A stretch of 35,452 nucleotides of DNA, from IMG/VR virus record IMGVR_UViG_2563366975_000004, one strand, 5' to 3'. Positions 1,422 to 27,386 of the stretch are shown one piece after another; positions within the stretch are counted from its first letter, which is position 1; every line of letters starts with the position of its first letter. Source of the DNA: a virus (Duplodnaviria > Heunggongvirae > Uroviricota > Caudoviricetes). Made by a program: the position numbers and the translations under genes. The notes beneath the pieces were generated by a model that saw only the letters and a program-made list of their open reading frames with translations, ran no database searches and was not told where the DNA came from.

Positions 1422-3893
1422 TTAAAAATCAGCCTGATTTGGGATCAGTTTTTGCCAGATAGCTGAAACGTATTTTGCCTGGTAACGGGCGTCATCAAGT
1501 GCATTATGGCGCTCACCTTCGAATGGAATAGCCGTTCTGGCATCGAAGTCTATGGCTTTCCCCAGCTCAACGATTGTGCGTACATCGCGATCGTTGTAGT
1601 AACGCCACGGGCAGGGGATCCCCTGCCGTTCGTATGAACGGCGCAAAATCGTGTTGTCGAAGTTGGCTCCATTTCCCCAAACCTGAACAAAAAATTCACC
1701 GGAGTTTTCGTCGATAAATTCCCGCAATTGTAACAGTGCATCATCTAACGGGATTTCATCGGTCATAATGGCAGATTGCGCTTCGCGTGATTGCTTAAGC
1801 CACCATTTAATGGTGTCCCGATCAATGACTCCGCCAGCAGTTTCCAGATCGATAGTCTTACTAAATTCCGGTCCCATATCTCCGGTTTGCGGATCGAAAA
1901 ATATTGCACCTATTGAGATGATCGGGGCATCAGGATTTTTTCCCATGGTTTCAAGGTCGATCATTAGATGGTCACACGTCCTGCTGGTGGATGTGATAAC
2001 GTGATGACCGTTCACCGTAATTAAGGGATCTGCCGTCTCGCCAGTTTCACTATCGCTGGCGTGGTCCTGAGCGCTGCCAGCATTCTCCTTGTGTGGATGT
2101 TCAGCGCCTTCCATTTTCTCCGAATCGTCTTCCTGAACTTCAACCTGGTTCTTGTCATCGAATGTTTCCTGGTATGTTGCGTCGCCCATCACCGCACCAC
2201 ATTCAGGGCAGTTGCCGCCGCCGGTCTGACCGTAGGCGGTGCAGATTTTTTCCGCTTCCTGTTGCGCTACTGGCTCAGGTTGTTTCGTTTCTGGCTCGTT
2301 TTGTAACGCATTTGGGCTGTTTTGTTCCGCTTTCTGGTCGTTCTGTTCCGTTTCTTGCTGGTTCTGGTTCACAGAATCGCGGGTCTGGTTCCCCTTAACC
2401 CATTTCGGATCATTCGGGTCGCTAATCCCTTCAACAAATTCACCACGTGATACAGCAAGCAACTGATCGGCGTCAGGCTGGCTGATATTGGCTGCCTGCA
2501 TAATTTTGTTTACTTCGTCAGCGGTAACTTTTACTGACCCTGGTTGTGCGGTCGTGTCAGATGCACCAGTATTTTGTTGTGAACCTGAGTATGTACCGTT
2601 TTTGCGGGCGAAATATTCTTCTTTCGTGATTTCAGTAGCCCCAGCAGACAGCGCCTTATCCAGACCAGAAAGTTTGTTTGCGCGACCGTATTTTTCGCCA
2701 TCCTTGTCGGTGAAGAGGAAGTAGAACGGCCCCTCACGCTCTACAGATGGTTCGACTTCCACTTTGCATTCAGTTTTTTCGTTGCCCGGAATTGCCGTTT
2801 CCACTGCATCAGTTTCTGGTACTGGCGACGAGAGAGTATCAGTTGCGCTCTGATTTGTTCCTTCATCTTCAAACACGCCCTTTGTAGTCAGGTATTCAGT
2901 AATGTATTTGTTCAGTGCCACAGGGTCTTTGTGAATGTCGATCGGACGTTCACGGACAAGGCCAAAAATAGTCTGGCGGTCGTAGCGAAGGGCATCAGGC
3001 TGTTTGCGCATTGATGCCGAGATACGCTTCCAGTCTTCGCGGTCGTTGTCGATAACTTCATTTTTTGCCCAGCGATGGATGCTGCCGTCAATGTTTCCGG
3101 CATCCACATCACCAGGCCAGAGAGCGTAGGCCAGTTCGTCATCCAGTGTTTTCCATGTCTGCTTGTATTCGCGATGAATGGCAGCAATGACCGGGTTGAT
3201 TTTTCCTGTTGAATTTTCAGTGTGCTGTTGATTGGCTCTGGCGCGGGCGAGATCAACAACAGACGTGTATTTTCCGGCTTCCTTGCGTTCACCTTCGCGA
3301 CGTTTTTTCCAGATGCGCATCTCTGCCTGAATTTCGGGCCATTTGGCACCAGGCTTACATTTATGCTTAACCCACCCGATGGCATGCAGCTTAAGCTCCG
3401 GATACATGGCGTTAACTTCTGGCATTTTCATCAACGCTTCAACGATATGTCCGTCGAATGTTGCCATGTCTTCCTGCAACAGTTCCTGCGCGCTAATCAC
3501 CATATCAACGGTGATGTTTTCACATGTGTCGAACTTAACCATGACAGCGTTCTGTACTTCAGGGGCCAGCTTGTCAAAAGTGACGTTCATCGGATCTGAT
3601 TCAGTCTCAACCGGGACAAAGGAAGCAGACGCCTCATCCCAGCGGTTTTCCTGCATATATTCAGCATCCCAGGAATCTAGGGCAGGGCGGGGTATACCGG
3701 GTTTATCCTCGCAGACAAGAAATTTATAAGCGCAGTCCTGAGCAGCCGGATAATGTTCCAGGAATTGCCAGTGAAATTTTGCGCGGGCGCGACGTTCATC
3801 ACCGGCTTCAATGGCAGTGGCTACAGCGACGGCACCTTCTTCCTTTATTGCCTGTTCGTCCGGAATGGCGGCGCAAATAAAGACTTTACTCAT
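1422..3893 (-). CDS. Phage exonuclease with C-terminal DnaQ-like (DEDD) 3'-5' exonuclease domain (823 aa)
   Basis: Long ORF; C-terminus contains MIDLETMG...GNGANFD...HNALDDA motifs resembling DEDDh exonucleases; long acidic low-complexity linker; early-left position next to xis/int. Confidence 0.65.
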   Translation of the reverse strand: MSKVFICAAIPDEQAIKEEGAVAVATAIEAGDERRARAKFHWQFLEHYPAAQDCAYKFLVCEDKPGIPRPALDSWDAEYMQENRWDEASASFVPVETESDPMNVTFDKLAPEVQNAVMVKFDTCENITVDMVISAQELLQEDMATFDGHIVEALMKMPEVNAMYPELKLHAIGWVKHKCKPGAKWPEIQAEMRIWKKRREGERKEAGKYTSVVDLARARANQQHTENSTGKINPVIAAIHREYKQTWKTLDDELAYALWPGDVDAGNIDGSIHRWAKNEVIDNDREDWKRISASMRKQPDALRYDRQTIFGLVRERPIDIHKDPVALNKYITEYLTTKGVFEDEGTNQSATDTLSSPVPETDAVETAIPGNEKTECKVEVEPSVEREGPFYFLFTDKDGEKYGRANKLSGLDKALSAGATEITKEEYFARKNGTYSGSQQNTGASDTTAQPGSVKVTADEVNKIMQAANISQPDADQLLAVSRGEFVEGISDPNDPKWVKGNQTRDSVNQNQQETEQNDQKAEQNSPNALQNEPETKQPEPVAQQEAEKICTAYGQTGGGNCPECGAVMGDATYQETFDDKNQVEVQEDDSEKMEGAEHPHKENAGSAQDHASDSETGETADPLITVNGHHVITSTSRTCDHLMIDLETMGKNPDAPIISIGAIFFDPQTGDMGPEFSKTIDLETAGGVIDRDTIKWWLKQSREAQSAIMTDEIPLDDALLQLREFIDENSGEFFVQVWGNGANFDNTILRRSYERQGIPCPWRYYNDRDVRTIVELGKAIDFDARTAIPFEGERHNALDDARYQAKYVSAIWQKLIPNQADF

Positions 3894-4929: not shown

Positions 4930-5096
4930 GATGGCAGCCTCCGCGATGAATTTGATTAACTCACCACCGAGGTTTTCCACGACCATAAGGGTGGTGAGAC
5001 GTACAGGGGTGGAAATACCGGTCATCACGGAACCCGGCCAGCCTTGCGGCTGCCCTGCACGCCCCACCATAATGCGAATGTGGCTGTGCTTAACGC

Positions 5097-5121
5097 ATAA
5101 AAAAACCGCCTGAGCGCGGTT
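5097..5121 (-). terminator. Rho-independent terminator (minus strand)
   Basis: Inverted repeat aaccgc/gcggtt with 6-nt loop followed on the minus strand by a run of 7 T. Confidence 0.5.
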
Positions 5122-5414
5122 ATGCGCCGTGAATGATTTCGGGTTTCCACGCCCGGCACCCGTTTTATGAGGTGCAGGTGCACTATAATTCCACCCGTTC
5201 TGGTTTTCAATAGCTACATTCAACATTTTCTCTACCTTTCATCACCGAAGTGAACTTTGTTGATGCGGTGCCTGGTGCCTCCAGGTGACGTTAACCAGTT
5301 AACAATTAACGTCGGATACAGAGCATTCCCGTTACGCCCGTAAAAGACCGCTTGTTTTAACTGTTCCGCGTGCGCTGAGCCGCATTCACCGCATCACAAA
5401 ATTCACTTTAAAAA

Positions 5415-5467
5415 GGGCGGCAGAGCAGTCACGGAGTAGAACTGATACCGCCAAAAGTCACCAGAAA
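5415..5467 (-). ncRNA. dicF: DicF small RNA (53 nt)
   Basis: Minus-strand sequence TTTCTGGTGACTTTTGGCGGTATCAGTTCTACTCCGTGACTGCTCTGCCGCCC followed by TTTTT; matches my recollection of E. coli DicF apart from about 2 substitutions. Confidence 0.75.
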
Positions 5468-14574: not shown

Positions 14575-14745
14575 GCGGGTGCTTGAGGCTATCTGTCTCA
14601 GGCATGAACACCAAAAGGCAGATAGAGAAAAGCCCCAGTTAACATTACGCGTCCTGCAAGACGCTTAACATTAATCTGAGGCCATATCTATGCGACACAT
14701 AGAGATTAGCCTCTTACGGACCGAAAGGTCAAGGAGAAGCAGGCT
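14575..14745 (+). promoter_or_regulatory. hok mRNA leader with mok-like upstream reading frame
   Basis: Leader segments gcttgaggctatctgtctcagg and tagcctcttacgg...caaggagaagcaggctATG resemble the recalled R1 hok/sok leader. Confidence 0.45.
14630..14700 (-). ncRNA. Expected Sok-like antisense RNA (position approximate)
   Basis: Inferred from hok/sok locus architecture only; antisense to the mok start region; no independent sequence signature identified. Confidence 0.25.
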
Positions 14746-14901
14746 ATGAAGCAGCAAAAGGCGATGTTAATCGCCCTGATCGTCATCTGTTTAACCGTCA
14801 TAGTGACGGCACTGGTAACGAGGAAAGACCTCTGCGAGGTACGAATCCGAACCGGCCAGACGGAGGTCGCTGTCTTCACAGCTTACGAACCTGAGGAGTA
14901 A
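14746..14901 (+). CDS. hok: Hok/Gef-family type I toxin (51 aa; not in ORF track)
   Basis: MKQQKAMLIALIVICLTVIVTALVTRKDLCEVRIRTGQTEVAVFTAYEPEE closely matches the Hok/Gef consensus as I recall it; AAGGAG RBS. Confidence 0.8.
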   Translation: MKQQKAMLIALIVICLTVIVTALVTRKDLCEVRIRTGQTEVAVFTAYEPEE

Positions 14902-25621: not shown

Positions 25622-25966
25622 ATGACTCAAAACTATGAACTGATTGTGAAAGGGATCCGCAATTTTGAGAATAAAGTTACGGTAACTTTAGCGTTACGGG
25701 ACAAAAAACGCTTTGACGGTGAAATTTTTGACCTGGACATCTCGCTGGACCGTGTTGAAGGTGCCGCGCTGGAGTTTTATGAGGCAGCAGCCAGAAGGAG
25801 CATCAGACAGGTCTTCCTGGATGTTGCTGCCGGGTTATGTGAAGGGGATGAGCAGTCGCCGGAAAAGCGCCCCGTAATTTTAGAGGCGCAGGATGTGTTG
25901 ATAACCTACAGAGGAAAACTACCGGGAATAATTACTGGTTCTCTGAAGAGTCCGCCGAAATGGTAA
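25622..25966 (+). CDS. Hypothetical protein (114 aa) inserted between holin and endolysin
   Basis: GGGGAGAG RBS; no family recognised. Confidence 0.5.
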   Translation: MTQNYELIVKGIRNFENKVTVTLALRDKKRFDGEIFDLDISLDRVEGAALEFYEAAARRSIRQVFLDVAAGLCEGDEQSPEKRPVILEAQDVLITYRGKLPGIITGSLKSPPKW

Positions 25967-26204
25967 TTTTACCAGCATATTTTTCATCCAGTAATACAGC
26001 AAGCCGCCTGAAAGAGTCTTGTTGTTCCTGAGACCATTTGGGATTGCATGATTCAAACTGGATTGATGCCAGCGTTGATTGCATCTGTTCCCTTGGAATT
26101 GAGAATGCCAGATATGAGAAGGCGACGGTAAGGGTATTCACGTCTTCCCGAAGCCTGGAAATGCTGTCGAGCAACTCCTGTAGAGAAATGGTGTTATTGT
26201 CCAT
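25932..26204 (-). CDS. Hypothetical protein (90 aa), convergent with the preceding gene
   Basis: GAGGA 6 nt upstream of ATG on the minus strand; 3' ends of the two genes overlap by about 35 nt. Confidence 0.5.
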   Translation of the reverse strand: MDNNTISLQELLDSISRLREDVNTLTVAFSYLAFSIPREQMQSTLASIQFESCNPKWSQEQQDSFRRLAVLLDEKYAGKITISADSSENQ

Positions 26205-26309
26205 AAATAATCCTCATGATTGTATTGACCTGTTAGCAGCCTGAGGCAACAGGCTGGAACTGATAAACATATCCAGGGCTCAGAAACCGATAAATCCTGA
26301 TAAATATCC

Positions 26310-26843
26310 ATGAACGCAAAAATCAGATACGGCCTGTCGGCTGCCGTTCTGGCGCTGATTGCCGCTGGTGCGCCTGCGCCTGACATTCTCGACCAGTTTC
26401 TGGATGAAAAGGAAGGTAACCACACCACGGCATACCGTGATGGCGCGGGTATCTGGACCATCTGCCGCGGTGCCATCCTGGTGGATGGCAAACCTGTCGT
26501 TCCGGGCATGAAGTTGTCGAAGGAAAAATGCGACCGGGTTAACGCCATTGAGCGTGATAAGGCGCTGGCATGGGTGGAGAAAAACATCAGAGTGCCATTG
26601 AGTGAACCCCAGAAAGCGGGGATCGCGTCATTCTGTCCGTACAACATTGGCCCCGGTAAGTGTTTTCCGTCGACGTTTTATAAACGAATTAATGCAGGTG
26701 ATCGCAGGGGAGCGTGTGAGGCGATTCGCTGGTGGATTAAGGACGGTGGCAGGGACTGCCGTATTCGCTCAAATAACTGTTACGGTCAGGTATCCCGTCG
26801 TGACCAGGAGAGCGCGCTGGCGTGCTGGGGAATCGACAGATAA
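26310..26843 (+). CDS. Endolysin, lysozyme (GH24-like) with N-terminal signal-anchor-release-like segment (177 aa)
   Basis: N-terminal Gly/Ala-rich weakly hydrophobic segment GLSAAVLALIAAGAPA; catalytic E...D...T arrangement (DEKEGNHTTAYRDGAGIWTICRG). Confidence 0.85.
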   Translation: MNAKIRYGLSAAVLALIAAGAPAPDILDQFLDEKEGNHTTAYRDGAGIWTICRGAILVDGKPVVPGMKLSKEKCDRVNAIERDKALAWVEKNIRVPLSEPQKAGIASFCPYNIGPGKCFPSTFYKRINAGDRRGACEAIRWWIKDGGRDCRIRSNNCYGQVSRRDQESALACWGIDR

Positions 26844-26933
26844 GCAGAATATTTTGCTAATAAATGACGTTGGCCAAGGCGGACGGATAACACGAAATCC
26901 TGCGAACTGGCAAAATGTAAGTGAATAAAAGTA

Positions 26934-26972
26934 AAAACCCCGTTTGTTGGCAGCAAGCGGGGTTTTGTTTTT
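26934..26972. terminator. Hairpin with flanking A- and T-runs (possible bidirectional terminator)
   Basis: aaaaccccg ... cggggtttt stem with about 15-nt loop, T-run downstream and A-run upstream. Confidence 0.4.
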
Positions 26973-27037
26973 ATGGCAGTAAGCTATGGGAGGCTGCCTT
27001 GATTGATTTTAGCAAACTGATTAGGGAGTTGCGACTC

Positions 27038-27133
27038 ATGATTAGTCAATTACCAAACTGGAAATTTTTGCTGGTCTGGAGCATCCCTTTTTTATGGGTA
27101 GTATCCCAGTTAATTGTGGCAATTAAGGGGTAG
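27038..27133 (+). CDS. Micro-ORF 1, hydrophobic peptide (31 aa; not in ORF track)
   Basis: MISQLPNWKFLLVWSIPFLWVVSQLIVAIKG; GGGAG upstream. Confidence 0.3.
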   Translation: MISQLPNWKFLLVWSIPFLWVVSQLIVAIKG

Positions 27134-27135
27134 CT

Positions 27136-27267
27136 ATGTCAGACAAACTCATAACGCCGGCAAAGGTCCTGTGTGTGATTGTCGGTATTTCATTTTCACT
27201 AATGCTGGTTGCTCTTTTTCTGTCCCTCGCCTGGGTGATGTTGTCTTCGTCGGGGCTGCTGGGGTGA
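27136..27267 (+). CDS. Micro-ORF 2, hydrophobic peptide (43 aa; not in ORF track)
   Basis: MSDKLITPAKVLCVIVGISFSLMLVALFLSLAWVMLSSSGLLG; AAGGGG RBS 6 nt upstream. Confidence 0.35.
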   Translation: MSDKLITPAKVLCVIVGISFSLMLVALFLSLAWVMLSSSGLLG

Positions 27268-27386
27268 CAGTGACTGATGACATCAGCAGAGCGCTGGCTT
27301 TTGCTATTAAGTGGGTGGCTGTTGGTATTGCTGTGTCTCCGATGCTGTATGGGCTGGCAAAACTGGTCATTGCGCTGAAATCGTGA
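27264..27386 (+). CDS. Micro-ORF 3, hydrophobic peptide (about 40 aa, GTG start)
   Basis: VTVTDDISRALAFAIKWVAVGIAVSPMLYGLAKLVIALKS; start overlaps stop of micro-ORF 2 (GTGA); paralogous to micro-ORF 4. Confidence 0.3.
   Translation: MTVTDDISRALAFAIKWVAVGIAVSPMLYGLAKLVIALKS

Follow-up and report, generated by a model that had tools for sequence, protein, structure and literature searches.

A convergent gene pair between holin and endolysin genes is a recurrent arrangement of ydfR and a putative reverse-strand moron

Why should two genes that face each other lie between the holin and endolysin genes of a phage, where a lysis cassette might be expected to run without interruption? We addressed this question in a stretch of viral DNA of 35,452 nucleotides (nt), referred to here as the window (IMG/VR record IMGVR_UViG_2563366975_000004; Duplodnaviria, Heunggongvirae, Uroviricota, Caudoviricetes), in which a forward-strand open reading frame (ORF), A, and a reverse-strand ORF, B, separate the two lysis genes and overlap at their 3' ends. 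A preliminary description had regarded the pair as an unusual insertion that splits a phage-21-type cassette and had raised the possibility of mutual antisense regulation. Our results demonstrate that the convergent layout is a recurrent and conserved architecture, in which A is ydfR, the usual occupant of this position in Escherichia coli, and B is a frequent accessory gene. We consider it reasonably probable that the two are independent, abutting units, ydfR being an ordinary late gene and B a self-contained moron cassette on the reverse strand. The features of the locus are as follows, in window positions:

25402..25617, forward strand: S21-type class II holin (pinholin) of 71 amino acids (aa), matching PF04971 with 111 bits
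25622..25966, forward strand: ORF A, ydfR, with an ATG start and 114 aa (ORF listing and sequence)
25932..26204, reverse strand: ORF B, with an ATG start and 90 aa (ORF listing and sequence)
25932..25966, both strands: the 35-nt ORF overlap, comprising B codons 80-90 and ydfR codons 104-114
26310..26843, forward strand: R21-type lysozyme (the endolysin) of 177 aa with a hydrophobic N-terminus, matching PF00959 with 84 bits and annotated as lysozyme / rrrQ

Both genes are real. The ORF listing, the sequence, Pfam and PHROG matches and the NCBI annotation all agree with the preliminary description on two convergent genes whose 3' ends overlap by 35 nt, and the good ribosome-binding sites that it reported were also found. 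ydfR starts 4 nt past the holin stop codon, and its Shine-Dalgarno (SD) sequence, GGGGAGAG (25607-25614), lies within the last codons of the holin gene. The SD sequence of B is GAGGAT, on the minus strand of 26210-26215 and 6 nt ahead of the ATG. The flanking genes were likewise correctly identified, and every component of a phage-21-type cassette was matched: a PF04971 holin with an M1/M4 dual start (N-terminus MYQMEK), the PF00959 lysozyme and, following it, Rz (PF03245) with Rz1 (PF06085) embedded in it. A 1.6-kb stretch of the locus is identical in many E. coli chromosomes, where NCBI annotates a class II holin ('class II holin family protein'), a YdfR family protein, a reverse-strand 'hypothetical protein' (B, WP_000369851.1) and a lysozyme.

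The view of the pair as an odd insertion did not survive a count of its occurrence. We searched 5,426 complete E. coli genomes with the holin, the N-terminal domain of YdfR and B, and obtained the following numbers:

holin: 13,418 places in 4,296 genomes
YdfR N-terminal domain: 8,603 places in 4,348 genomes
B: 1,338 places in 1,207 genomes

The ydfR places amount to about 64% of the holin places, and about four-fifths of complete E. coli genomes have ydfR adjoining a holin gene. Among deposited phage genomes, 101 carry ydfR, H-19B, BP-4795 and many Stx1a and Stx2c phages being among them, and three carry B. A ydfR gene between an S21-type holin and the endolysin is the majority state in E. coli, and B is a frequent accessory; the survey of S21-type cassettes proposed in the preliminary description has thus returned ydfR as the usual occupant and B as a less frequent one. 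The same description had allowed for the pair being a standard, characterised part of such cassettes. Standard it is, but characterised it is not: the genes belong to the DUF1327 and PHROG 2411 families, and neither has an established function, as had been stated.

Comparison with known lysis cassettes supports this conclusion. The Qin-type cassette of E. coli K-12 and ATCC 8739 (essQ/essD-ydfR-rrrQ-rzpQ) has the same order of holin, ydfR, lysozyme and Rz. Its YdfR differs in being 103 aa long, in being without the second module described below and in overlapping rrrQ by 4 nt and, unlike the window, the Qin-type cassette has neither a variable slot nor a reverse gene. The cassettes of phage 21 and DLP12 share with the window the PF04971 holin family, the dual start, the lysozyme family and Rz/Rz1, but in the DLP12 type essD adjoins rrrD without ydfR or a reverse gene. 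At DLP12-type places both essD and rrrD fall under one match to a holin-only query (H149), indicating that the two genes are adjacent. Phage 21 itself, as described in the literature from the Young laboratory, resembles the DLP12 type in having adjacent holin and endolysin genes. In the window, by contrast, the two lie 692 nt apart, with ydfR and B between them.

ORF A is a full-length member of the DUF1327 (YdfR) family (PF07041, 145.2 bits against a cut-off of 25, residues 1-111), which is the only Pfam match of the pair. It also matches PHROG 406, carries the NCBI annotation 'YdfR family protein' and occupies the position expected of YdfR members, directly after an S21-type holin and ahead of the lysozyme. 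Its residues 1-74 are 81% identical to Qin-type YdfR. Protein and DNA alignments and a structural model made with AlphaFold2 (AF2) divide the protein into two parts:

25622..25846, forward strand: N-terminal domain of YdfR, residues 1-75, with three beta strands and then a long helix in the AF2 model
25847..25957, forward strand: second module of YdfR, residues 76-112, ending ...ITGSLKSPP (protein and DNA alignments)

The three strands and the long helix span residues 1-73, with predicted local distance difference test (pLDDT) values of 61-86, while the second module, which is missing from Qin-type YdfR, is modelled poorly (pLDDT 41-48). In the family alignment, a 112-residue core gives way to sharply divergent tails. 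Fold matches of the model are weak, and PADLOC, NCBIfam and PDB sequence searches with A gave no match; a 211-aa YdfR variant from another locus (L003) gave a single weak PADLOC match, to Cmr5 (E = 0.018).

A search of the literature on YdfR/DUF1327, on essQ/rrrQ and on both proteins returned functional data in one paper only (PMC13232886, RNA Biol 2026). There, residues 1-72 of K-12 YdfR bound the N-terminal (catalytic) half of RNase E, and also RNase G, in two-hybrid assays, and Strep-YdfR co-purified Rne(1-598) and RNA. The protein encoded in the window, 81% identical to Qin-type YdfR over residues 1-74, may share the RNase E binding reported for K-12 YdfR. ydfR belongs to the late operon and is not a separate convergent unit. 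It would be co-transcribed with the holin gene, to which it is probably also translationally coupled, and its product would be a small cytoplasmic protein with an accessory late function on host RNA metabolism rather than a lysis protein, given that DLP12-type cassettes do without ydfR.

ORF B belongs to PHROG 2411, a genuine if narrow family whose members are acidic proteins with four helices. The profile is matched over its full length (E = 9.3e-59, residues 1-90 against profile positions 1-90 of 90), and no match was obtained in Pfam, NCBIfam, PADLOC or, searched with a profile, PDB. Among 5.8 billion proteins, 62 relatives were found, nearly all of which have 90 residues and come from Escherichia, Shigella or Citrobacter, and the B profile recovered only 20 from 1.84 billion cluster representatives. 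The protein has a pI of 4.5, and in its AF2 model the helices reach pLDDT 85 and residues 81-90 are disordered (pLDDT 37); fold matches are generic. At E <= 1, PADLOC matched neither A nor B nor any of the alternative reverse proteins described below, and no toxin, antitoxin or defence family was matched.

We also considered whether B is a gene at all; it might instead be an ORF lying antisense to a coding frame on the forward strand or to a spacer that is not translated. The ratio of nonsynonymous to synonymous substitution rates (dN/dS) between two B lineages is about 0.3 in the B frame and about 0.2 in the forward frame that shares wobble positions with it. With the lower value in the forward frame, dN/dS alone cannot pick the coding strand, and in one related locus (L157) the forward frame is open for 115 codons. 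In the window, however, the forward frame has a stop and no ATG, and the start, the strong SD sequence and the 90-codon length of B are constant across variants at 70-99% identity. In addition, distant homologues (25-43% identity, 81-97 aa) occur in unrelated DNA contexts and always in B's frame. These homologues, relic copies of B and the closed forward frame together settle the coding strand, and purifying selection acts on the B protein. With the helices of the AF2 model added, a non-coding B is barely credible.

B occupies a variable slot between ydfR and the endolysin gene, which we term the S-R slot. DNA alignment places its left boundary at ydfR codon 112 (...CTGAAGACNCCNCCG) and its right boundary at a block of roughly 50 nt that reaches as far as the endolysin ATG. 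We sampled 120 IMG/VR loci by their endolysin-upstream flank only; nearly all of the holin-bearing loci among them had ydfR, and 96 had a complete ydfR. The slot contents of these 96 loci were:

B: 31 of 96 loci
empty, with ydfR ending ...TPPESQP, ...TPPLA or earlier: 42 of 96 loci
ydfR extension and an 86-aa reverse gene: 11 of 96 loci
ydfR extension and a 91-aa reverse gene: 5 of 96 loci
268-aa YdfR and a 104-aa reverse gene: 5 of 96 loci
329-aa YdfR and no reverse gene: 2 of 96 loci

All of the reverse proteins belong to PHROGs of unknown function, and the four kinds share no detectable homology with one another (hhalign probability <1%, nothing significant by blastp). Empty and alternative slots have the same flanks, and B is absent from homologous cassettes with sharp boundaries, as is characteristic of a moron. 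B is paired with several different alleles of the ydfR N-terminal domain, and ydfR with the same second module commonly occurs without B. In the 'LA' class of empty slots, CCACCG of ydfR abuts the first half of the leader hairpin described below, a junction that looks like a microhomology deletion. One cassette, in IMGVR_UViG_651053022_000004 (L119), is rearranged, with 2343 nt from holin to endolysin and the order holin, 'ESQP' ydfR, partial endolysin, partial Rz fused into B antisense, B and full endolysin; this provides evidence of recombination between two cassettes at the slot.

The 35-nt overlap of the two ORFs follows from where the cassette boundary falls. The last two codons and the stop of ydfR (KW*) are supplied by the B cassette. 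Citrobacter relatives of B end ...ITIL or ...ITIREG and the Yersinia one ...ITIP, none with the run-on of the E. coli protein, which continues for about eight codons (ADSSENQ) as a disordered tail antisense to the conserved ITGSL of ydfR. At the RNA level, the overlap extends beyond 35 nt: the endolysin gene lies downstream of B, so the late transcript crosses B in antisense over the whole gene. Antisense interplay is physically unavoidable, and the mutual antisense regulation raised in the preliminary description is physically plausible. On its 3' side, B has a hairpin of its own, situated inside ydfR:

25861..25889, reverse strand: terminator-like hairpin for B, with GCGCCUC, a 9-nt loop, GGGGCGC and UUUUCC

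This hairpin (25889-25861 in the direction of B) forms in the minimum-energy structure that RNAfold gives for the 3' flank, both in the window and in L157, and it has stronger counterparts in a relic copy of B (L283, a 9-bp stem) and in Yersinia (L296, a strong terminator). With terminator-like hairpins 3' of B and its relatives, and with the overlapping part disordered and missing in Citrobacter, B looks like its own transcription unit.

Upstream of B, the slot ends in a leader and in the conserved block that abuts the endolysin gene:

26205..26259, reverse strand: B leader, with the SD sequence and a hairpin at 26237-26256 (CAGCCUG / CAGGCUG)
26260..26309, reverse strand: conserved block of about 50 nt, right boundary of the slot, adjoining the endolysin ATG in all slot types

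Read in the sense of the reverse genes, the leader comprises the block (..ATATCAGGAT..CCCTGGWTATGTT), UCAGCC, a hairpin, (G/A)AUGGCUGAU(U/A)A and the SD sequence, and AUGGCUGAUUAA also reads as a mini-ORF, MAD*. The same leader precedes B relatives and unrelated reverse genes, both in the lysis S-R slot and in a slot between tail genes M and L. Further occurrences, in locus coordinates, are:

L284, 4876-5000
L299, 3383-3557
L302, 3434-3600
L296, 3800-3988

The stem sequence of the leader hairpin differs completely between loci. UCAGCC is complementary to GGCUGA, and RNAfold pairs the two in several loci. The leader in the window is missing the variable hairpin, and its two halves, homologous to the UCAGCC and GGCUGA halves of related leaders, pair directly as the hairpin at 26237-26256, which taken alone is not significant (z = -1.07). 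Rfam has no family for the leader of the window or for the related leaders. The block at 26260-26309 (..TTTATC-N17-TATGTT..) may be a promoter or regulatory region for B; empty slots of the 'ESQP' class have a decayed form of its candidate -10 element. By-eye candidates for LexA-box, sigma-54, sigma-E and CII-box patterns upstream of B were not conserved across variants and were dropped.

This anatomy invites an explanation in which control of lysis acts through RNA. Leftward transcription from the leader, running antisense into ydfR and the holin gene (S), would silence leaky holin expression in the lysogen, and would also collide with late transcription ahead of the endolysin gene, and protein B would be secondary. 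Such a role would account for the conservation of the 50-nt block, read on the minus strand, across all slot types, one class of empty slots among them, and for the antisense position of all of B relative to the late mRNA, and the weak terminator of B makes read-through into ydfR and S likely. Nevertheless, B is under selection as a protein and its ORF is kept where there are no lysis genes, the candidate -10 element has decayed in the 'ESQP' slots, DLP12-type cassettes work without any such element and no promoter was called. We therefore regard RNA-level control as an improbable primary function of the locus.

Homologues of B at other sites bear on whether the two genes belong together. Several have no forward partner:

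L283, 2946-3218: B homologue with an uninterrupted ORF, E. coli CM2 chromosome, beside iha
L282, 2967-3236: B homologue on plasmid NZ_CP180703, beside an autotransporter gene
L293/L294, 5001-5279 and 1463-1741: distant B homologue of 92 aa, stand-alone and chromosomal, between dinI and bssS

The first two are E. coli copies outside lysis cassettes, at about 72% DNA identity and among insertion sequence (IS) elements, and about 72 E. coli records fall into the 60-80% identity band that they share. Beside iha, the uninterrupted ORF is still bordered by decayed remnants of the 5' part of the endolysin gene and the 3' part of ydfR. The homologue between dinI and bssS belongs to an enterobacterium and sits about 1.7 kb downstream of rne. 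A scan of genome contigs with a narrow B alignment gave one locus, in Yersinia. In most phage contexts, in contrast to these partnerless copies, B-family genes (25-55% identity) are convergent with a small forward gene, the two overlapping at their 3' ends:

L284, L297 and L298: convergent partner between tail genes M and L, 7-nt overlap
L289: convergent partner beside terminase genes, overlap of about 20 nt
L296: convergent partner after tail gene I, Yersinia massiliensis, 47-nt overlap
L291: convergent partner, 17-nt overlap

Four of the forward partners share a motif, [IL]-[TF]-G-[SD]-[LI], located 6-12 residues from the C-terminus: ITGSL in E. coli YdfR, ITGSL in Yersinia, IFGDL in L284 and LTGDI in L289. 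Its register against the B codons differs between loci, indicating that the motif is more than the antisense of B codons.

These partnerships would fit an old two-gene functional module, in which the C-terminal part of the forward protein (a coiled coil and a KG..ITGSL tail) works with the acidic four-helix protein, for example as a lysogen factor neutralised by a late partner or as an inhibitor/effector pair, the convergent layout giving the two opposite timing. Within the S-R slot itself, three of the four kinds of reverse cassette overlap the ydfR 3' end (by 35, 53 and 68 nt), and a comparison of the L284 forward protein with the YdfR profile gave a single-comparison hhalign E of 0.0044, although at a probability of 7.8%. 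On the other hand, B homologues do without a forward partner at four sites (L283, L282, dinI-bssS and L288), the second module of ydfR is common without B, B is combined with several ydfR alleles, and a forward tail and a reverse gene that share DNA are bound to be linked. The recurring partner could reflect either a true module or cassette exchange that drags the 3' flank along; we favour exchange because B occurs without the partner and the ydfR module without B, and a dedicated two-gene module appears rather unlikely.

We return to the reading of ydfR and B as independent units that abut. The B cassette would consist of the leader, the 90-aa ORF and a weak terminator, placed in a hypervariable slot and expressed independently of the late operon, most likely in the lysogen. 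Expression of B would be shut off once antiterminated late transcription runs through it. The lysis cassette is preceded by a strong intrinsic terminator with a T-run, about 40 nt upstream of the holin start, and should thus be reachable by antiterminated transcription only:

25334..25362, forward strand: intrinsic terminator ahead of the holin gene, with a 12-bp stem and then TTTTTATTGTT

Four observations weigh against this reading. No sigma-70 consensus promoter was found upstream of B or its relatives. The terminator of B is weak, having a stem of 7 bp that includes one G-U pair and only four U residues, and went uncalled in a consensus scan. The forward partner and its motif recur in four unrelated contexts, which is unexpected if the genes are functionally unrelated. 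Finally, the link of YdfR to RNase E comes from a single paper, in which over-expression of the K-12 protein altered few transcripts (PMC13232886).

The slot between tail genes M and L extends the comparison beyond lysis genes. In Atlantibacter-like phages (L299-L304 and L284, about 3001-3216 in locus coordinates), the forward M-L gene keeps its first 47 or so residues (MSLDNKVELLNIEIKELRG...), while its tail changes with each reverse gene: at least six different C-terminal tails occur, each with its own reverse-strand gene. A late-sense terminator lies downstream of the forward gene, just ahead of gene L. This anatomy is the same as that of the S-R slot, where a YdfR core carries variable tails. 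We tentatively suggest, as a speculative possibility, that the S-R slot exemplifies a broader system by which temperate phages of Enterobacterales exchange cassettes, combining a leader (CCCTGGWTATGTT, UCAGCC, hairpin, AUGGCUGAUUAA, SD sequence), unrelated acidic cargo proteins of 72-104 aa encoded against the late operon, rewritten forward tails and expression of the cargo in the lysogen as conflict factors. The cargo, B included, would then be proteins of, for example, exclusion, anti-defence or host modulation, switched off on induction by the forward tails or by late transcription.

Taken together, our results indicate that the arrangement is ordinary, thousands of E. coli genomes carrying and annotating it, rather than an odd split of a cassette, and that the ydfR 3' end is a hot spot for the swapping of small reverse-strand genes with a shared structured leader. 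The best leads towards function are, for YdfR, its reported binding to RNase E and RNA and, for B, its presumed expression in the lysogen. The wider pattern of a conserved leader, swappable reverse genes and rewritten forward tails at two operon positions is possibly worth pursuing. If the cargo does serve conflict or host modulation in the lysogen, the slot would be a convenient source of new factors and the convergent layout a simple timing switch.

Several further features of the surrounding DNA were recorded. Upstream of the holin gene, an esterase gene (window 20964-25251; DUF1737 in its N-terminal and DUF6645 in its C-terminal part) is interrupted by an IS21-family element at about 21661-23912 on the minus strand (IstB of 251 aa with PF01695, IstA of 499 aa). 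In NZ_CP018957, an otherwise identical copy, the esterase gene is uninterrupted (1857 nt) and an IS21-like element is found in the portal region instead. Rfam matches comprise two copies of the STnc100 small RNA and two tRNAs, which lie between a Q-like gene and the gene for the esterase, as well as a sok antitoxin RNA and, in the early region, C4, isrK and DicF RNAs; the matches are at 19700-19893 and 20169-20357 (+), 19277-19433, 14577-14748 and 4987-5466 (-). Downstream, small ORFs that overlap one another and encode hydrophobic stretches (70, 43 and 90 aa in the ORF listing) occupy the endolysin-Rz interval (26921-27386, forward strand). The NCBI annotation gives three small hypothetical proteins of 43, 51 and 28 aa for this interval, and no Pfam match was obtained.

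Finally, we compared both genes and the slot with phage systems of known behaviour. Phage modulators of RNase E include T4 Srd, T7 gp0.7 and phiKZ Dip, the last of which binds the C-terminal scaffold of the enzyme. YdfR has no significant sequence or fold similarity to any of these, and the half of RNase E on which it is reported to act is the N-terminal one. B resembles lambda bor and the morons of Hendrix and Juhala in being an extra gene that is missing in close relatives, in or near the lysis cassette and on the strand opposite to the late operon; bor is placed in this way in L002, and morons have their own terminator, where B has a weak terminator-like hairpin. The two differ in that B is an acidic cytoplasmic protein and bor a lipoprotein, with no relation in sequence or fold, and in that expression in the lysogen is a prediction for B. 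The slot as a whole recalls the P2/P4 defence hotspots of temperate phages, which, in work attributed to Rousset et al. 2022, reportedly carry variable cassettes: like the S-R slot, they have fixed flanks around mutually exclusive, unrelated cargo in similar phages. Unlike those hotspots, the S-R slot carries single proteins of 72-104 aa that match no known defence family, and it lies inside an operon, where each exchange rewrites the 3' end of the forward gene.

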